Virus genome (UHGV): UHGV-0300374 | DNA length: 64,000 nucleotides | Source of the DNA: a virus | Reading direction: 5' to 3' (one strand) | Part shown: positions 14,583 to 21,325 of the stretch, piece by piece | Layout: every line of letters starts with the position of its first letter | Position numbering within the stretch: position 1 is the first letter of the stretch | Notes under the pieces: model-generated | Database searches by the model: none | Seen by the model: the letters and a program-made list of their open reading frames with translations, nothing else | What the model was told of the DNA's origin: nothing | Program-made: the position numbers and the translations under genes

Positions 14583-14658
14583 AAAATAACTTGGAGAATC
14601 CGAAGGGACTCGAACCCTTATAAACCTGTTTTGCAGACAGGCACATAGCCATTTCTGT
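14583..14658 (-). tRNA. tRNA-Cys (GCA)
   Basis: Acceptor GAATCCG/CGGATTC, T-arm GGGTTCGAGTCCC, anticodon loop CTGCAAA, CCA encoded. Confidence 0.7.
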
Positions 14659-14662
14659 CACG

Positions 14663-14755
14663 GATTCAAATTGGAGGAAGATACCAGACTTGAACTGGTA
14701 CACCGATTTCTCAGCTACTGGCAGTTTAGCAAACTGCTCCCTTACCTTTTAGGGT
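14663..14755 (-). tRNA. tRNA-Ser (GCU), long variable arm
   Basis: Acceptor GGAAGAT/ATCTTCC, anticodon stem GCAGT/ACTGC with loop TTGCTAA, about 93 nt. Confidence 0.6.
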
Positions 14756-14766
14756 TAATCTTCCAT

Positions 14767-15501
14767 TTATTTCTGTAATGCGCTCTTCATTTCTGGTGTT
14801 GCAATAGTGTCAATCACACCAGTTTTACAGGCATCATCAAACCAGTCTGGTAAGATACCTGCTAAGAACCCATTGATATTCGTTCTAAGGTACTCTGCAA
14901 TAAGGGCAGCTTCTTCTTCAATCATCTGCACAACTTCATCTGCATAAGCTGTAATCTTTGAAATACCTTCATTAATCTTACTAACAGCCTGATTAGCTAA
15001 ATCAGAAACAGTATCAAGACCCTCATCAATAGCGTCTTGTAAGTCACTTAACACACCATTAACACTATCTAGTGTACTGTTAATCATGTCAATAGCTTTT
15101 TGACCATACTCTGTAGCAACACCCATAATACCACTGAATGGTGTACAACCAACTTGTTCTCCTGCTGCACCCATAACATTGGAGTATCCCTTTGCTACCT
15201 GCATACGTGATGAAAACTCATCAATAGACTTTTGACCGTAGTCTGTCAGGGTCTTAGTAGTTGCTGTAGTGCTTGTAAGGCTTGTTGTAAAGCTGTTTAG
15301 AAGGACTGTTGTAAGTCCAGCAGCAACAAGCTTATCTTTTACTGTAGGGTCTGATACAGAACTAATAGAGCTTACAAGTGATGTAGAGGCAGCTACGGTT
15401 CCACCGAGAACTGCTGCACCAGTAATAAGGGGGTTAGAAAACCCTTTACCAGTTTTTAAGAGATTAAAAATCTCCTTACCTTGTTCTGTCATCTCTTTCA
15501 T
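14767..15501 (-). CDS. hypothetical protein (Ser/Thr-rich N-terminal half)
   Basis: ORF-track start 15564 overlaps tRNA-Phe; internal ATG at 15501 has RBS aaaggtg and avoids the tRNA. Confidence 0.45.
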   Translation of the reverse strand: MKEMTEQGKEIFNLLKTGKGFSNPLITGAAVLGGTVAASTSLVSSISSVSDPTVKDKLVAAGLTTVLLNSFTTSLTSTTATTKTLTDYGQKSIDEFSSRMQVAKGYSNVMGAAGEQVGCTPFSGIMGVATEYGQKAIDMINSTLDSVNGVLSDLQDAIDEGLDTVSDLANQAVSKINEGISKITAYADEVVQMIEEEAALIAEYLRTNINGFLAGILPDWFDDACKTGVIDTIATPEMKSALQK

Positions 15502-15517
15502 TAAGCACCTTTGAAAT

Positions 15518-15594
15518 TGGTAGTCCAGTGGGATTTGAACCCTCTTCTCATGTTTTTCAGACACGCGCTTTAACCATATAAGCTACTTGGACTA
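15518..15594 (-). tRNA. tRNA-Phe (GAA)
   Basis: Anticodon stem CGTGT/ACATG with loop CTGAAAA; T-loop TTCAAAT; acceptor TAGTCCA/TGGACTA. Confidence 0.6.
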
Positions 15595-15599
15595 TAAAT

Positions 15600-15675
15600 T
15601 GGGGTGACCTACGGGATTTGAACCCGTATAGACCATGTTCACAGCATGGGTCATTACCATTTATGATAAGGCCAC
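15600..15675 (-). tRNA. tRNA-His (GUG)
   Basis: Anticodon stem CCATG/CATGG loop CTGTGAA; discriminator C; T-arm ACGGGTTCAAATCCCGT. Confidence 0.7.
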
Positions 15676-15706
15676 ATTTAAGGACTCTCGTAAGAATCCT
15701 TAGAAG

Positions 15707-15782
15707 TGGCAGCGGCATAAGGATTTGAACCTTAATAAGACAGCTTCAGAGACTGCTGCATTGCCAGTTATGCTATACCGCT
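15707..15782 (-). tRNA. tRNA-Gln (CUG)
   Basis: Anticodon loop CTCTGAA; T-arm TAAGGTTCAAATCCTTA; acceptor AGCGGTA/TGCCGCT. Confidence 0.6.
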
Positions 15783-15787
15783 AAATT

Positions 15788-15866
15788 TGGTACTCCATAT
15801 CGGATTCGAACCGATACATAACACAGATTTTAAGTCTGGCCTCTCTGCCAATTGGAGTAATGGAGC
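15788..15866 (-). tRNA. tRNA with Leu anticodon UAA (class-I-like short variable arm)
   Basis: Anticodon loop CTTAAAA, discriminator A, T-arm ATCGGTTCGAATCCGAT; variable region only about 7 nt. Confidence 0.5.
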
Positions 15867-15868
15867 AT

Positions 15869-15944
15869 TGGCGGGGGATGTTGGAATTGAACCAACTTCT
15901 TCGATTTCAAAGACCGAGGTTTTAACCTTGTAAACTAATCCCCT
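15869..15944 (-). tRNA. tRNA-Gln (UUG)
   Basis: Anticodon stem TCGGT/ATCGA loop CTTTGAA; T-arm GTTGGTTCAATTCCAAC; 1:72 mismatch. Confidence 0.6.
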
Positions 15945-15952
15945 TTAAATCT

Positions 15953-16510
15953 TTACTTTCTCAGTGGATGAATAAAGAATGCCAACATAACTCTTTCCCT
16001 TGAGAATGCTCTTTCTTCTGGGACAACACTTTTTAGTTTCCATCCAATATAAATTCTCCAGTAAAATTGTTTACCAAAGATTTTAATTGATGGGATAAAA
16101 GCGAATAATCCCCAAGCATTCCTGTTCCACATTAGGAGATAACCAGTCTGATTATCTTCAGGGTCAGAACTTACGTTGATATTACCTTTCCACTTAGTAA
16201 CATCTTTTACATCTCTTCCTAATACATGGTAAGAGAAGTTATAAGCTTTGTTTCTCCAGAGCCATCCGACTCTTTGCATGTAGACACCTAGTTTACCAAT
16301 CCATCTAATATTAGCCCATCTTTTAACGTGACCTTCATCACCATCAATTGGGTTGTCATATGTCTCCATCCATCTGAACCCGAAAGGTAAGTGTCCTTTC
16401 TTCTCACTGTAGAATGGAACTACAAAAGGTGCTAAGATAACTGCTAGTATTGCTGCAAGTGGTTCTAGCAAAGCTAAGAAAATCCATGAAGCATATTTTA
16501 AGTATCTCAT
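15953..16510 (-). CDS. hypothetical membrane protein embedded in tRNA array
   Basis: 185 aa; hydrophobic N-terminus WIFLALLEPLAAILAVILAPFVV. Confidence 0.45.
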   Translation of the reverse strand: MRYLKYASWIFLALLEPLAAILAVILAPFVVPFYSEKKGHLPFGFRWMETYDNPIDGDEGHVKRWANIRWIGKLGVYMQRVGWLWRNKAYNFSYHVLGRDVKDVTKWKGNINVSSDPEDNQTGYLLMWNRNAWGLFAFIPSIKIFGKQFYWRIYIGWKLKSVVPEERAFSRERVMLAFFIHPLRK

Positions 16511-16749
16511 TGTCTAACCCTCGTAAGGAGGTAAGCATTATTACTTGTTTCTGAGCTTTCTGGTAACATTGTCTCAAAATTGACACTTTTAAGTTGTCTT
16601 CCACCAAAGCAATGACCAATAAATCTTTCTACTTTTATTGGGTCGCATTCCCATCCGACTTTTAAGAAAATGTGGGTATCTATAGTGGGAACCCTTACAA
16701 ACTCAATACTATTGGGATTTTCATGTTCAACGACGATTAATGTTTGCAT
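16507..16749 (-). CDS. hypothetical protein embedded in tRNA array
   Basis: ORF track, 80 aa, 4-nt overlap with downstream ORF. Confidence 0.4.
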   Translation of the reverse strand: MQTLIVVEHENPNSIEFVRVPTIDTHIFLKVGWECDPIKVERFIGHCFGGRQLKSVNFETMLPESSETSNNAYLLTRVRQ

Positions 16750-16767
16750 AAATTCCTCTTGCTTATC

Positions 16768-16843
16768 TGGCGCAGGATAAGGGATTCGAACCCCTATTAA
16801 CAGTTTCGTAGACTGTTGCTCTATCCATTTGAACTAATCCTGC
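16768..16843 (-). tRNA. tRNA-Arg (ACG)
   Basis: Anticodon stem ACAGT/ACTGT loop CTACGAA; acceptor GCAGGAT/ATCCTGC; T-loop TTCGAAT. Confidence 0.7.
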
Positions 16844-16848
16844 AAAAT

Positions 16849-16926
16849 TGGTGTTCCAAGACGGATTCGAACCGTCACTAATACAAGGTTTGAGCTTGCA
16901 TCCTCTGCCAATTGGGATACTGGAAC
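16849..16926 (-). tRNA. tRNA with Leu anticodon CAA (class-I-like short variable arm)
   Basis: Anticodon loop CTCAAAC, discriminator A, T-arm GACGGTTCGAATCCGTC. Confidence 0.5.
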
Positions 16927-16927
16927 A

Positions 16928-17002
16928 TGGTACTCACTAAAGGACTTGAACCTTTTTCTTCATCTTGTAAGGGTGGTGTTTTACCATATAAACTAAGCGA
17001 GT
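16928..17002 (-). tRNA. tRNA-Val (UAC) candidate, weak anticodon stem
   Basis: Acceptor ACTCGCT/AGTGAGT, D-arm GTTT..AAAC, T-arm AAAGGTTCAAGTCCTTT, loop CTTACAA but only 3 of 5 anticodon-stem pairs. Confidence 0.4.
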
Positions 17003-17098
17003 GTGAAAGAGGTCTGAAGTTGTGCCGCTAACTCAACTCCGTGGAATTTGTTACGGTCTTCAGTTGACTCAAAGCGGTCTTTCACTTGACCTCTGAAT

Positions 17099-17174
17099 TG
17101 GTGCTCCCACAAGGATTCGAACCCTGATAAGTTGCTTACAAGGCAACCGTAATAGCCAATTATACGATAGGAGC
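17099..17174 (-). tRNA. tRNA-Thr (UGU)
   Basis: Anticodon stem GTTGC/GCAAC loop CTTGTAA; T-arm CAGGGTTCGAATCCTTG. Confidence 0.7.
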
Positions 17175-17181
17175 ATTAATT

Positions 17182-17256
17182 TGGAGCATCCAGAGGGAAT
17201 CGAACCCTCAACCTCAGTTTGGAAGACTGTAATTTTCCCGTTTAAACTATGGATGC
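17182..17256 (-). tRNA. tRNA-Gly (UCC)
   Basis: Anticodon loop CTTCCAA; T-arm GAGGGTTCGATTCCCTC; acceptor GCATCCA/TGGATGC. Confidence 0.65.
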
Positions 17257-17262
17257 ACTAAT

Positions 17263-17338
17263 TGGTGGAGTCACTGAGAATTGAACTCAGTTCCCAAGTT
17301 TGCAAAACTCGAATTTTAACCATATAAACTATGACCCC
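17263..17338 (-). tRNA. tRNA-Ala (UGC)
   Basis: Acceptor GGGGTCA with G3:U70 wobble; anticodon loop TTTGCAA; T-arm CTGAGTTCAATTCTCAG. Confidence 0.7.
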
Positions 17339-17344
17339 ATTGTT

Positions 17345-17420
17345 TGGTACAGGTGGAGGGAATTGAACCCATCGTCTTACTGATTAAGAGTCAGCCGCAT
17401 AACCATTTTGCTACACCTGC
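17345..17420 (-). tRNA. tRNA-Lys (CUU), copy 1
   Basis: Anticodon stem GCTGA/TCAGT loop CTCTTAA; acceptor GCAGGTG/CACCTGT; T-stem weak. Confidence 0.55.
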
Positions 17421-17427
17421 ATTAATT

Positions 17428-17505
17428 TGGTAGGAGACAAGGGATTCGAACCCTCAAACACCAACTTCTAAGGATGGTAGGTTTACCAATTACCGTCAAT
17501 CTCCC
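17428..17505 (-). tRNA. tRNA with Leu anticodon UAG (class-I-like short variable arm)
   Basis: Anticodon loop CTTAGAA, discriminator A, acceptor GGGAGAT/GTCTCCT with wobbles. Confidence 0.45.
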
Positions 17506-17761
17506 ATTAAATCTTTTTAGAGAACTTCTAAGAACCTAAGCAACAAGGTTCCACAACAAGCTGTAATAACCTTAGAAGCCCTCTAAAAAGACCTAAAAAG
17601 GTCTTTGCATAGTCTTGTTTAATCCGGTGACTAGAACCTTTGGAGAGCTTGATATTATCTCTTCTCCGTGACACCTACTAGGTGCTTTATCAGTGTGTAC
17701 GACAATACACGAGGGATACCAAAGCAACATCCGAATGAAGCTTGGCTTTAAAATCTTATTA

Positions 17762-17851
17762 GGCGGTAAGTAAAGGAGTCGAACCCTCACCGTATCTCTA
17801 CAGTGGCAACTGTTTTCAAGACAGTTTGGCTACCATTAGCCGCTACCTACC
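17762..17851 (-). tRNA. tRNA-Ser (UGA), long variable arm
   Basis: Acceptor GGTAGGT/ACTTACC, anticodon stem ACTGT/ACAGT loop CTTGAAA, about 90 nt, CCA not fully encoded. Confidence 0.55.
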
Positions 17852-17864
17852 CCTAATAAGACTT

Positions 17865-17947
17865 TGGCATGGGACGGAGGAGTTGAACCCCTTTGAAACG
17901 GTGTTGGAAGCCGTTGCTCATGCCTTAGAGTCTTAACATCGTCCCAT
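17865..17947 (-). tRNA. tRNA-Trp (CCA) candidate with extended D region
   Basis: Perfect acceptor ATGGGAC/GTCCCAT, T-loop TTCAACT, hairpin AACGG-CTTCCAACA-CCGTT carrying CCA; D region about 7 nt longer than canonical. Confidence 0.4.
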
Positions 17948-18089
17948 ACTATAATTCGAAGCTTACCGTATTATCTCAACACTGTAAAGCCCCTTCTCAG
18001 ATTATTTACATGTTCTGGAAAACATGAGATACAGACCACCTCCCTACAGGAAGACCCGCTTAGGTCGTCTAAGTAATCTGCTAACTAAT

Positions 18090-18166
18090 TGGCACACCCT
18101 ACAGGATTCGAACCTGTAACTAACGATTTAGAAGACCGTTGCTCTATCCAATTGAACTAAGGGTGC
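18090..18166 (-). tRNA. tRNA-Arg (UCU)
   Basis: Anticodon stem ACGGT/ATCGT loop CTTCTAA; D-arm GTTCAATTGGATAGAGC; T-arm ACAGGTTCGAATCCTGT. Confidence 0.7.
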
Positions 18167-18413
18167 ATTAATCTTTAAAGACTCTCTTAGAAAGCCCTTA
18201 AAGATGCCCACCTTATTAATCATACCGTGGGCTAGTACGCCAAATTCTTTGATGAGGGATTGGAAGACCTCACTGGTGTTTAGCCTATCAAGCTACTGCC
18301 AGAAAAACATTGTCGTTTGCATTTATTTTAAATTTGCAAAATAGACGCTACGCAACGAAAACTAAGGTTACTATAAAGTAGTCACATCTCAATGTCAACA
18401 ACTTTATTGAAAT

Positions 18414-18489
18414 TGGTACTGGTAGGTGGAATCGAACCACCAATGTTCCCTTATCAGGGGAGTGTTATAACCTTCTTAACTATACCAGC
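18414..18489 (-). tRNA. tRNA-Ile (GAU)
   Basis: Anticodon loop CTGATAA; T-arm GGTGGTTCGATTCCACC; acceptor GCTGGTA/TACCAGT. Confidence 0.65.
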
Positions 18490-18490
18490 T

Positions 18491-18567
18491 TGGAGGTTCA
18501 GATGGGAATCGAACCCACATTCATAGGGCTTATGAGACCCTTGCATTACCTTATCTGCGACTGAACC
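18491..18567 (-). tRNA. tRNA-Met (CAU)
   Basis: Anticodon stem AGGGT/GCCCT loop CTCATAA; acceptor GGTTCAG/CTGAACC. Confidence 0.65.
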
Positions 18568-18571
18568 ATAT

Positions 18572-18647
18572 TGGTAGAAGTGGAGGGAATTGAACCCATC
18601 GTCTTACTGATTAAGAGTCAGCCGCATAACCATTCTGCTACACTTCC
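18572..18647 (-). tRNA. tRNA-Lys (CUU), copy 2
   Basis: Anticodon/T-arm identical to copy at 17345-17420 but acceptor GGAAGTG/CACTTCT. Confidence 0.55.
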
Positions 18648-18653
18648 ATTAAA

Positions 18654-18793
18654 TTATCTTTGTAGATAAGCTACCCAGACTTGCTTAAGGTCTGTAGCGA
18701 TGTGCCTTTTTGGGTTTAAATCTAGAATTTACCCTTTCACCCTTTGTGGTCGCATACTCACAGGTAAGCTTAATAACTTATCTACAAAGATAA
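18654..18793 (-). ncRNA. structured spacer bounded by perfect 17-bp inverted repeat (candidate small RNA/processing element)
   Basis: ttatctttgtagataag at 18654-18670 and its exact reverse complement at 18777-18793, 106 nt apart; no tRNA fold, no credible ORF. Confidence 0.35.
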
Positions 18794-18829
18794 TTACCAG
18801 ACCGTTGTTTATCATCTTAAGTGCTACCA

Positions 18830-18878
18830 TTACACCAACTCGACATCTGCCGAGTGAAGGAATCGAACCTTCGCCTTT
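18830..18878 (-). ncRNA. tRNA-like minihelix/tRNA fragment (T-arm plus closed acceptor hairpin)
   Basis: GAAGGTTCGATTCCTTC T-arm followed by ACTCGGC-AGAT-GTCGAGT hairpin then a D-arm-like GGTGTAATGGTAGCAC; no matching 5' acceptor strand upstream. Confidence 0.35.
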
Positions 18879-18907
18879 TCTTTACCGAGAAATAGATTGT
18901 TTAAGTT

Positions 18908-18935
18908 TTGCTGTAAACGGTCTTCTGTAAATTTG
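18908..18935 (-). repeat. conserved 28-nt tRNA-spacer motif, copy 1
   Basis: ttgctgtaaacggtcttctgtaaatttg; identical copy at 19390 and variants at 18996 and 19566. Confidence 0.5.
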
Positions 18936-18995
18936 TTGAGCCAGACCAAGTTTTAAATTTTTCAAAATTAAATTGGCTTGAAATTTTAAGTAACT

Positions 18996-19015
18996 TGCTG
19001 TATTTGGTCTTCTGC
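18996..19015 (-). repeat. conserved tRNA-spacer motif, copy 2 (variant)
   Basis: ttgctgtatttggtcttctg. Confidence 0.4.
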
Positions 19016-19075
19016 TCCTTTAAAGGATACTCGTAAGAACCCTTTAAGGGAGGGGCTAAATAGCCCTCTCAAAAT

Positions 19076-19152
19076 TGGCGGTTACGAAGGGATTTGAACC
19101 CTCATCATCTCCCGTGACAGGGGAGTATTTTAACCAAATTAAACTACATAAC
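19076..19152 (-). tRNA. tRNA-Asp (GUC)
   Basis: Perfect anticodon stem CTCCC/GGGAG loop CTGTCAC; acceptor GGTTATG/CGTAACC. Confidence 0.7.
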
Positions 19153-19157
19153 CTTTA

Positions 19158-19246
19158 TTGGTGTGCCGTGTAGGAGTCGAACCTACCGAGTCTCAATGAC
19201 AAGGGATTTACAGTCCCCACCGCTACCATCTACGGGATAACGACAC
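19158..19246 (-). tRNA. tRNA-Tyr (GUA), long variable arm
   Basis: Anticodon stem GGGGA/TCCCT loop CTGTAAA; 89 nt; T-arm GTAGGTTCGACTCCTAC. Confidence 0.65.
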
Positions 19247-19255
19247 ATTTAAATT

Positions 19256-19332
19256 TGGCGGTTAGTCAGGGATTCGAACCCTGTGCCATTCGCTTAACAG
19301 GCGACCGCACATACCTTATGTGCTTCCTAACC
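19256..19332 (-). tRNA. tRNA-Asn (GUU)
   Basis: Anticodon loop CTGTTAA; D-arm GCACA..TGTGC; T-arm CAGGGTTCGAATCCCTG. Confidence 0.6.
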
Positions 19333-19389
19333 ATGTTTAGCATTACCAGACCGTATATTTCAATTTTTCCGCTAAAAATTTAATAAATA

Positions 19390-19418
19390 TTGCTGTAAAC
19401 GGTCTTCTGTAAATTTGG
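19390..19418 (-). repeat. conserved 28-nt tRNA-spacer motif, copy 3
   Basis: ttgctgtaaacggtcttctgtaaatttgg abutting the 3' end of the tRNA at 19416. Confidence 0.5.
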
Positions 19419-19492
19419 AGGCGGGTGCAGGAGTCGAACCTGCCGATACCATGCTAATGAGACATGTGAGACGCCCTTTCTCTATACCCGCA
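19416..19492 (-). tRNA. tRNA with CAU anticodon (second Met, initiator or Ile-lysidine type)
   Basis: Anticodon stem CATGT/GCATG loop CTCATTA; T-arm GCAGGTTCGACTCCTGC; 1:72 mismatch. Confidence 0.5.
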
Positions 19493-19565
19493 ATTCTTAA
19501 TGACCAGACCAAATATCTTCTTTGTCCGATTAACTTTCAGATGAGTAGATTAAGTTTGCTGTAAT

Positions 19566-19595
19566 TGGTCTTCTGTCAAAACTGGCGTTCCAGAA
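19566..19595 (-). repeat. conserved tRNA-spacer motif, copy 4 (variant)
   Basis: ttgctgtaattggtcttctgtcaaaactgg; minus-strand reading contains TTGACA. Confidence 0.45.
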
Positions 19596-19670
19596 GGGAT
19601 TTGAACCCTCAAATATCCACTTTGAAAGAGTGGTGACTTTACCATTTTGTCTACTGGAACATTAATTTGG
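19593..19670 (-). tRNA. tRNA-Glu (UUC)
   Basis: Perfect anticodon stem CCACT/AGTGG loop CTTTCAA; acceptor GTTCCAG/CTGGAAC. Confidence 0.7.
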
Positions 19671-19677
19671 TCTCTGT

Positions 19678-19754
19678 TGGAGGACTTGAACCTCCGGCCT
19701 TACCGCCCCAAACGGAACGCTCTACCAAGCTGAGCTAAACAGAGATAAACTTTT
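19678..19754 (-). tRNA. tRNA-Pro (UGG)
   Basis: Anticodon loop TTTGGGG with G37; D-arm GCTCAGCTTGGTAGAGC; T-arm GGAGGTTCAAGTCCTCC. Confidence 0.65.
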
Positions 19755-19909: not shown

Positions 19910-21325
19910 TTACCAGATATAACGGTCAATCATTACTGCTTTGAGCATTACACTGATTGGGTCAAACTTCTCACCACCAAGCAGAGCTTTTAAAGTGGCT
20001 GGAGAGAACCCTGATACCATTGCTACACCATTATCCTTAACAGATACTTCGCAAGTACCATTACGGTTTGCTAAGTACCAGAATACCAGTTGTGGCATCT
20101 CATATCCAGCTTTTTTGTACTTACTCTGAATTGCTTCAAAGTTTGTACGACCGTTAGCTCCATCAACCTGATTGAACTCCATATCGGAGAAGATGATAAG
20201 CTTACTTGGCATATCTTTCTGAGTCAAGTTGTTTCTTTTACCTGTTTCAAGAATGCGGTCAAAAGCTGCTTGTAAGTTAGTTGAGCCATATTCAACGTGT
20301 CGCATCACCTGACGATGACGGTTTCGTAAATCACCACTCAGTTCGATGAAGTGAGGGTTTGTTGAATAAACCATTAACTCATTCTTAAAGCAACCTGTAT
20401 TGCGTTCTGCTACATACAAGGCAAGTGATACACCAATATCCAGAGCAGTAATGGAGCCAAAATTCACCCAAGACATCGAACTTGATACATCAGACATACA
20501 CAAGATGTTTTCACCTTCTGCCATCCAGTTTGGTAGTGCTTTCCACTGCTCATTAGCAACATCTGCATTACCATACTTGACAGATTTAATCACATCGTAT
20601 GGGTAAACAGCACCAGCGTTAATCTTAGTCTCACCTTTTGATAAGGACTCGATGTAAGCTTTGTAACGTTCTCCATCCTTACGGTTAAACAGTTTTTGGT
20701 AACGTGCAGCAGCAAGTGAAGGAACCTTACTGTAGTCAATCTTGCCAAACTCATTAGCAGAGATTTTTTGCTCAACTGTATCAGATAGTGCAGACAACAG
20801 TGTGCGGTACTCTTTCTCATTCAAGTTGGCAAACTTGCAGAAACGTTTTACAAACTGCTTATGACGTGGTTTGACTCGTGGTAGCCACTTGGCTGCCAAA
20901 CCTGCTGTTGCAGGGTCTAGTAATGCTGCTTCTAAATGTTTGAAGGCATCTGTCTCGAAACGAGTACCTACGAAGATTTTGAAGTCATCAAAACGACCAA
21001 GTTCTGCAATCTTATCCATAATGCGAAGAACCTGTGTAGGCTCTAAAACTTTATCTTCAATTGCTTGAAGCAAAACAGTTCTGAAGGCTTTACGCTCACC
21101 CATACCTTCTCGTACATCTCGCATATGCAGTAAAATACGAACTGCAACATCAACATCCTCATGCAAAGCTTTGTAGAACAGGTCTGGTAAGATTTCTACG
21201 TTGCTACGGCTTGAACCAGCAGCTTTGTAAAAGTCTACAAGAGCAGACATTGATGAAGTATGGTTTACAGCACCATTTTCAGTTCGACCTGCATGAAGGT
21301 GCGCATGTTTAAATAATTCGCTCAT
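19910..21325 (-). CDS. von Willebrand factor A (MIDAS) domain protein, possibly TROVE/Ro60-like (DUF2828-type)
   Basis: 471 aa; motif ENILCMSDVSSSMSW matches vWA MIDAS DxSxS after a hydrophobic strand; alpha-helical N-terminal part; immediately upstream of tRNA array. Confidence 0.5.
   Translation of the reverse strand: MSELFKHAHLHAGRTENGAVNHTSSMSALVDFYKAAGSSRSNVEILPDLFYKALHEDVDVAVRILLHMRDVREGMGERKAFRTVLLQAIEDKVLEPTQVLRIMDKIAELGRFDDFKIFVGTRFETDAFKHLEAALLDPATAGLAAKWLPRVKPRHKQFVKRFCKFANLNEKEYRTLLSALSDTVEQKISANEFGKIDYSKVPSLAAARYQKLFNRKDGERYKAYIESLSKGETKINAGAVYPYDVIKSVKYGNADVANEQWKALPNWMAEGENILCMSDVSSSMSWVNFGSITALDIGVSLALYVAERNTGCFKNELMVYSTNPHFIELSGDLRNRHRQVMRHVEYGSTNLQAAFDRILETGKRNNLTQKDMPSKLIIFSDMEFNQVDGANGRTNFEAIQSKYKKAGYEMPQLVFWYLANRNGTCEVSVKDNGVAMVSGFSPATLKALLGGEKFDPISVMLKAVMIDRYIW

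Follow-up and report, generated by a model that had tools for sequence, protein, structure and literature searches.

Probable leucine tRNAs with short variable regions in the tRNA cluster of a Felix O1-like phage

In textbooks, leucine tRNAs have a long variable arm everywhere but in animal mitochondria. A 2023 review of tRNA identity describes tRNALeu in the same way (PMC9976931). Here we describe three tRNA genes with leucine anticodons, from the virus genome UHGV-0300374, whose products are predicted to have the short variable region of class I tRNAs. We analyzed a stretch of 64 kb from this genome (the window), with 38.9% G+C. The window is a Felixounavirus: its tRNA region is 94–98% identical to those of Felix O1-like myoviruses of this genus, from E. 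coli and Salmonella, such as OZ035766 and KhF1 (KT184313). The three genes are tRNA-Leu(UAA) at 15788–15866 (79 nucleotides (nt)), tRNA-Leu(CAA) at 16849–16926 (78 nt), and tRNA-Leu(UAG) at 17428–17505 (78 nt). All are on the minus strand, and these lengths include an encoded CCA. They belong to a cluster of 26 tRNA genes (14592–19744, minus strand; ARAGORN) with small open reading frames (ORFs) interleaved.

Type I tRNALeu is already known from Streptomyces coelicolor, and the phage trio adds to this known kind. The S. coelicolor tRNALeu(CAA) is of the bacterial type, with a variable loop of 5 nt; it is found alongside class II tRNALeu and has been shown to be leucylated (PMC6614811). Unlike the phage genes, it is a chromosomal gene of the host, and it has C48 instead of U48; A73 is not an identity element there, and charging requires features of the leucine-specific domain of the Streptomyces leucyl-tRNA synthetase (LeuRS) (PMC6614811). 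A tRNALeu(UAG) with a short variable loop has also been mentioned, in one sentence, from a mycobacterial tRNA cluster (PMC6582537). This too is a class I gene in a mobile, phage-like array, beside a normal chromosomal class II gene, but the host is from another phylum. The tRNALeu of animal mitochondria are class I as well, with leucine anticodons, short variable loops, and A73 and A14 as identity elements, but they are served by a dedicated mitochondrial LeuRS, their D and T loops are degenerate, and their sequences are unrelated to those of the phage. Finally, leucine tRNA bodies without the long arm have been engineered from E. coli tRNALeu (a minimalist tRNA, PMC9976931, and the VLAD mutant, PMC4615657). 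E. coli tRNALeu that lacks the variable arm is still a substrate of LeuRS (reviewed in PMC9976931) and of the anticodon methylase TrmL (PMC4615657). The phage genes look like natural versions of these tRNAs, although the engineered ones are laboratory constructs. In the openly accessible literature, what we found on short-armed phage tRNALeu was the Streptomyces study, the one mycobacterial sentence, and a paper on Shigella phage Sf14 that never mentions the variable arm (PMC12482277).

A sequence-only reading of the window had folded the three genes by hand into tRNAs of 78–79 nt with discriminator A, anticodons UAA, CAA, and UAG, and just 5–7 nt between the anticodon and T stems. It had left three choices: the folds are wrong, the tRNAs are atypical leucine tRNAs, or they are charged with another amino acid. 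Both ARAGORN and the Rfam tRNA model (RF00005) bear out the fold. The anticodon loops are CTTAAAA (UAA), CTCAAAC (CAA), and CTTAGAA (UAG), and A73 is found in all three. Given anticodon and T stems of 5 base pairs (bp) each, the variable regions are GTTATGT (UAA, 7 nt), ATTAGT (CAA, 6 nt), and TGTTT (UAG, 5 nt); that of Leu(CAA) becomes 5 nt if U26-A44 counts as a pair. The Rfam scores are 47.5 bits for UAA, 44.0 for CAA, and 40.0 for UAG (E = 1e-8 to 2e-6), against a gathering score of 29 bits. The Rfam alignment, which might have brought out a long arm or other anticodons, did neither: the anticodons are identical, and the variable region has only 1–4 inserted nt. A leucine-specific covariance model (R1, below) also gives a short variable region, so an error of folding is ruled out. 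None of the three has the class II architecture, with a variable arm of over 10 nt that forms a stem-loop; their 5–7 nt are without a stem. And all three have what defines a type I tRNALeu, a leucine anticodon with a short variable loop of about 5 nt.

In other respects the trio resembles the class II tRNALeu of E. coli (leuZ, leuW, leuX, and leuQPV) and the Leu(UAG) of phage T5. They have in common the anticodons, A73, U8:A14, A15:U48, the T loop, and, for Leu(UAA) and Leu(CAA), a 3-bp D stem and an 11-nt D loop with AAUUGG-A-A. They differ in the variable arm, which has 12–17 nt with a stem in E. coli and T5, versus 5–7 unpaired nt in the window. U8, A14, A15, U48, G18G19, A20a, and A73 are present in all three phage tRNAs. 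The bases of the U8:A14 and A15:U48 (Levitt) pairs are thus in place, with a U directly 5' of the T stem, and the pairs themselves are predicted. The D arms of Leu(UAA) (CTC-CAATTGGCAGA-GAG) and Leu(CAA) (TCC-CAATTGGCAGA-GGA) have the 3-bp stem and the 11-nt loop, xAAUUGGYAGA, which reads CAAUUGGCAGA in ARAGORN's bracket strings. The layout is identical in leuZ, leuW, leuX, and leuV and in T5 tRNALeu (for instance, GAAUUGGUAGA). Leu(UAG) has a Leu-type D arm only if one C is bulged, as in the leucine-specific model; ARAGORN and Rfam give other registers. The tertiary-core bases, G18G19, A20a, and A73 make up the known identity set of E. coli LeuRS, which includes neither the anticodon nor the variable arm (PMC9976931; introduction of PMC6614811).

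We built the covariance model R1 from 47 long-arm tRNALeu only (4 from E. coli, 1 from T5, and 42 from viral contigs) and scored the whole 26-tRNA cluster with filters off. Despite a deletion of 6–8 nt, the trio took the top three of the 26 ranks: UAA with 53.4 bits, UAG with 51.3, and CAA with 50.0, followed by Glu (46.5 bits) and Cys (44.8 bits). With the generic Rfam model, their ranks are 19th, 22nd, and 23rd of 24. For the near-identical tRNAs of phage Sf14, Leu was the best isotype in tRNAscan-SE, with scores of 67.4, 49.1, and 60.2 (PMC12482277); two of the Sf14 anticodon loops are identical to those in the window and the third differs by one base. The identity set of another synthetase is not visible in any of the three, with no G3:U70 and no long arm for SerRS. 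A k-nearest-neighbour isotype test with anticodon-masked, arm-deleted bodies did not recover the control Cys, Phe, Ala, and Ile tRNAs. Of the three choices above, the identity elements, the R1 ranks, and the Sf14 scores speak for atypical leucine tRNAs, while nothing that we found supports charging with another amino acid. Most likely, these are genuine leucine tRNAs that the host charges.

We propose that the trio are functional, leucine-accepting tRNAs of a Felix O1-like phage that have lost the long arm and taken on class I geometry while keeping the tRNALeu body, and we hold this with good, though not complete, confidence. They would be transcribed within the phage's tRNA cluster, with CCA already encoded, and host LeuRS would charge them by way of A73 and the tertiary core. 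Once charged, they would decode UUA and UUG (the UAA tRNA), UUG (CAA), and CUA, CUG, and perhaps CUU (UAG), which would add decoding capacity for codons that the phage over-uses. Across the 64 ORFs of the window, leucine codons are 25% UUA, 13% UUG, 28% CUU, 6% CUC, 12% CUA, and 16% CUG. In E. coli, the values are roughly 13% UUA, 10% CUU, about 4% CUA, and about 50% CUG. This AT-rich phage relies on UUA, CUA, and CUU much more heavily than its host. That the trio reads all six leucine codons is plausible, with the reading of CUU and CUC by the UAG tRNA depending on the modification state of U34. We infer leucylation by E. coli LeuRS from the identity elements, and we likewise infer use in translation.

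Several observations weigh against this proposal. The main one comes from Fan et al. (NAR 2019, PMC6614811), who found that the type I tRNALeu(CAA) of S. coelicolor was not charged by E. coli LeuRS, an enzyme that they describe as specific for type II. Because that tRNA has C48 where the phage tRNAs have A15:U48 along with A73, the failure may not transfer to them. The margin of the trio over the next tRNA (Glu) with R1 is just 3.5–7 bits. Leu(UAA) has a G1.U72 pair and a C27.U43 mismatch. Leu(UAG) has A37 where the host's Leu(UAG) has G37 (an m1G site), and its D arm is irregular, with one extra nucleotide at the junction of the acceptor and D arm. And thermodynamic folding of the unmodified sequences gave only partial cloverleaves (z = -0.8 to -2.2), although such folding is uninformative for AT-rich tRNAs.

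The extra nucleotide of Leu(UAG) is placed differently by each program. ARAGORN has a 3-nt linker, a shifted D stem (GGU/ACC), and a 9-nt loop; Rfam shifts the register of the acceptor stem; and the leucine-specific model has a stem of A-U, G-C, and G-C with a bulged C and the Leu-type 11-nt loop. True homologues of this gene are tRNAL1 (Leu, UAG) of phage BF23 and Salmonella phage 5 (GenBank AJ604531) and a tRNA-Leu of Seunavirus SalP219. These have the same 5-nt variable loop, CUUAGAA anticodon loop, U30.U40 mismatch in the anticodon stem, and T arm, but their D arm is a regular one of 3 bp and 11 nt, without the extra nucleotide of the Ounavirinae. Near the junction, the Ounavirinae gene differs from its BF23 homologue by an inserted U, a U-to-A change, and an A-to-C change, and the three together are consistent with a re-registered stem. 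Conservation of the junction sequence extends from Felixounavirus as far as Pectobacterium phage Wc4, so the fold, whichever it is, is selected. The U30.U40 mismatch of the class I Leu(UAG) is common to Felixounavirus, Wc4, the T5-like phages 5 and BF23, and SalP219 (loci compared: window 17428–17505 (minus strand), L002 3997–4073, L003 3001–3077, and L364 4001–4078).

More broadly, T5-like phages and Vequintavirinae have homologues of Leu(UAG) at 81–84% identity. Related phages may have either form in one slot: the gene between tRNA-Ala and tRNA-Ser2 is a 77-nt class I gene in BF23 and phage 5, and its counterpart in T5 is a class II Leu(UAG) of 85 nt. The slot is the same but the sequences differ throughout, which implies gene replacement and rules out that the BF23-type gene arose just by loss of the arm from the T5 form. 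Phage Wc4 has both kinds, with a class I Leu(UAG) and a class II Leu(UAA) of 87 nt.

To see how far this architecture extends, we scanned IMG/VR with a pattern in which a Leu-type D loop and an NAR anticodon are followed by the T loop after only a short stretch. At least 120 loci matched, with at least 159 short-arm tRNALeu. For an unbiased viral sample, we took 120 loci via a tRNA-Gly(UCC) pattern and analyzed the 114 of them that were new (L128–L241). There, 22 of 52 tRNALeu (42%) had a short arm (4–7 nt), all of them in loci with 10–28 tRNAs; one of these 22 calls (L188) looks dubious. No short arm was seen among 45 tRNASer, and just two were seen among 22 tRNATyr: one is from a giant-virus contig, and the other, from a locus with 3 tRNAs, is an isolated call that may be degenerate. 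The sequence-only reading had taken phage and bacterial leucine tRNAs to be normally long-armed, and this is half true: it describes the other tRNALeu of the sample but not these 22. The lengths of the variable regions are bimodal, with 20 of the 52 at 4–5 nt, two at 7 nt, none at 6, 8, or 9 nt, and the rest at 10–21 nt. By this measure, two of the window's genes, Leu(UAA) with 7 nt and Leu(CAA) with 6 nt, are among the rare intermediates.

Among 27 loci with Leu genes, 3 have only short forms, 13 have only long forms, and 11 have both. One long-armed and one short-armed gene (L061 and L026) are 87% identical outside the arm. That the short and long forms are interleaved by similarity indicates recurrent loss of the arm across phage lineages, not one ancient short-armed lineage. 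The short-armed viral tRNALeu have A73 in 174 of 174 unique sequences and A15:U48 in 168 of the 174. In the same loci, only 79 of 1,553 non-Leu class I tRNAs have both A73 and A15:U48 together with a D arm of 17 nt or more. Short-armed tRNALeu of the bacterial type are a widespread, little-described class that is especially common in phages. The coliphage genes and this survey contradict the rule that tRNALeu is long-armed outside of animal mitochondria.

Within the window's own cluster, arm loss is also specific to leucine. As called by ARAGORN, tRNA-Ser(GCU) (14672–14764), tRNA-Ser(UGA) (17762–17851), and tRNA-Tyr(GUA) (19159–19246), all on the minus strand, keep long variable arms of 21, 20, and 15 nt, and tRNA-Ser(GCU) keeps the class II architecture. 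Arm loss in tRNALeu is probably permitted because bacterial LeuRS does not need the arm. The deletion would be tolerated only in tRNALeu because SerRS needs the arm and TyrRS partly does, and the dependence of SerRS accounts for why Leu and Ser differ so sharply in our survey. In other words, nature has repeatedly removed the arm exactly where the biochemistry of bacterial LeuRS predicts that it is dispensable.

We also considered that the arm was lost, or is kept lost, to hide phage tRNALeu from nucleases or toxins that target the class II variable arm. Decoding would then continue when the host's tRNALeu are destroyed. This would be an added selective reason and is compatible with the trio being ordinary leucine acceptors. 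There is a precedent with another class II tRNA: PtuAB (in retron-Eco7 and Septu) cuts the variable loop of tRNATyr, and the tRNATyr of T5 escapes because its loop is different. By analogy, class I tRNALeu might be nuclease- or toxin-proof replacements. Similarly, the toxin MenT3 anchors on the long variable loop of tRNASer (PMC11541572). The bimodal lengths of tRNALeu variable regions (5 nt, or 10 nt and above) and the recurrent, Leu-specific loss would fit, and the anticodon loops of the phage tRNAs differ from those of the host, as has been described for phage tRNAs that evade nucleases (PMC10264068). However, our literature searches turned up no defence system that targets tRNALeu or its variable arm. 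Arm-directed nucleases should also have stripped the arm from phage tRNATyr, which keeps it; many phages have both forms of tRNALeu (11 of the 27 loci); and neutral loss, permitted by LeuRS, is a simpler account of why leucine is affected. Human Schlafens cut type II tRNAs, but we reject a link to bacterial Schlafens, as the one characterized bacterial enzyme acts on the anticodon arm of Lys, Met, and Ala tRNAs, which it cuts with no specificity for class II. Overall, counter-defence seems an unlikely reason for the loss, though the likeliest of the alternatives. If it were true, then the roughly 40% share of short-armed forms among phage tRNALeu would mark an undiscovered family of defence systems that target tRNALeu. 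Felix O1-like and BF23-like phages offer a tractable system, in E. coli and Salmonella, for the role of the long arm of tRNALeu. The same system bears on whether E. coli LeuRS charges only type II tRNALeu and on whether arm loss shields tRNAs from tRNA-directed immunity.

Another explanation is that E. coli LeuRS cannot use class I tRNALeu, as its failure with the S. coelicolor tRNA might suggest, and that the trio are mischarged or serve as uncharged decoys or regulators. This seems very improbable. The leucine identity elements are complete in the phage tRNAs and Leu is the best isotype model, and the Streptomyces tRNA differs at position 48. No other synthetase finds its identity set in them, and synthetases that read the anticodon would reject UAA, CAA, and UAG. 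Furthermore, mischarging would recode about 10% of all codons, which is implausible for a phage with proteins that are ordinary homologues of those in other phages.

Our proposal of functional leucine tRNAs also fits with how well the genes are conserved. Among 264 phage records, 216 have a UAA gene with 100% identity, annotated as tRNA-Leu; among 292, 249 have a CAA gene with at least 95% identity; and the UAG gene has two alleles among 355; in most of these records, the Leu genes are 95–100% identical. The setting in a 26-tRNA cluster and the conservation across phages are far beyond chance. Between the window and phage VpaE1, the Leu(UAG) genes have eight differences, all of which are in the anticodon stem (CCAUC/GUUGG → UCUCG/CGAGA). 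The VpaE1 stem has five Watson-Crick pairs, while the window's has four pairs and the U30.U40 mismatch. Phage Wc4 has a third compensated anticodon stem. Across 175 unique short-arm viral tRNALeu, 97.9% of the combinations at the 20 stem positions are standard pairs, versus 58.8% with shuffled 3' partners, and most stem positions have 4–6 types of pairs. Identical genes in most records and compensatory changes in the stems imply that these tRNAs are under selection, and the trio are evidently under purifying selection rather than pseudogenes.

That the trio are decaying class II tRNALeu, damaged by deletion, might be suggested by generic-model scores below those of their neighbors, by the anticodon-stem mismatches and the irregular D arm of Leu(UAG), and by a clearly broken chimeric Leu gene in a relative (Salmonella phage FG1m), but this is the least probable explanation of all, as identical or near-identical genes are found across hundreds of phages with compensatory stem changes, the CCA is intact, the T loop is perfect, and 175 distinct viral tRNAs, with 97.9% of their stem positions paired, have this architecture too.

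The FG1m gene (PP068123, L365; 3999–4076) is Leu(CAA) in its 5' part and Leu(UAA) in its 3' part, with the fusion inside the common CGGTTCGAATCCG. Its acceptor stem is broken, and the genes that are normally found between the two Leu genes are absent. It results from a deletion by recombination between the paralogous Leu(CAA) and Leu(UAA) genes. In several GenBank records, homologues of Leu(UAG) are labelled as 'tRNA-OTHER' or 'tRNA-pseudo' (as in Si3, ST11, and NBSal004), or the Leu genes are left unannotated. The short arm probably depresses the scores of annotation tools. As a practical point, annotation pipelines sometimes call short-armed tRNALeu tRNA-OTHER or pseudo.

We used the same Leu pattern to scan one genome per prokaryotic species and found at least 160 short-arm tRNALeu (loci L242–L361); among the matches listed, 80 are lone tRNA genes. 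Where record titles are listed, the loci are mostly from Actinomycetota (Nocardia, Mycobacterium, Gordonia, Rhodococcus, Arthrobacter, and Bifidobacterium). The lone actinomycete genes are mostly UAA, but also CAA and UAG, and they have a common D arm, GCCCAATTGGCAGAGGC (for instance, L242 from Gordonia, L247 from Nocardia, L249 from Mycobacterium, and L273 from Bifidobacterium). Their D arm GCCCAAUUGGCAGAGGC resembles those of the window's UAA and CAA genes. These genes contradict the view that bacterial tRNALeu is always class II. The MenT3 paper names only tRNALeu-2, -3, and -5 of M. tuberculosis as long-looped (PMC11541572). The remaining prokaryotic matches are in arrays of 7–28 tRNA genes from cyanobacteria, Acidobacteriota, Planctomycetota, and others. 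BLAST against 5,426 complete E. coli genomes found nothing similar to the window's Leu genes, which rules out a recent capture from the host.

As for the rest of the cluster, 24 of the 26 tRNAs reach the gathering score with the Rfam tRNA model, and the gene order is the same as in the annotation of the near-identical Enterobacteria phage KhF1, including the three tRNA-Leu. The two ARAGORN calls below the gathering score are tRNA-Tyr (19159–19246, minus strand) and one tRNA with a CAU anticodon (19416–19492, minus strand). The Rfam score for tRNA-Ser(UGA) (17762–17851, minus strand) is 33.2 bits, and the ARAGORN call ends in GCC, not CCA.

The second tRNA-Lys (18572–18647, minus strand) seems to be a hybrid. 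In this slot, KhF1 and VpaE1 have a Lys(UUU) gene, whose acceptor stem is the one found here. The inner body and the CUU anticodon match the Lys(CUU) gene at 17345–17420 (minus strand). This looks like gene conversion between the two Lys paralogues, and it leaves the window's phage with two Lys(CUU) genes and no Lys(UUU) gene. tRNALys(UUU) is a target of PrrC and PARIS, so the missing gene may be relevant.

The ORFs interleaved with the tRNAs at 14767–15501, 15953–16510, and 16519–16752 (all on the minus strand) belong to families of unknown function (DUF7217/phrog_2114, DUF7338/phrog_2143, and phrog_14202, respectively). In contrast to the tRNA region of T5, none of the three matches any homing-endonuclease family. 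Directly upstream of the cluster, a 471-amino-acid ORF (19910–21325, minus strand) matches phrog_850, 'RNA-binding protein', and the Pfam families DUF2828 and DUF7788.

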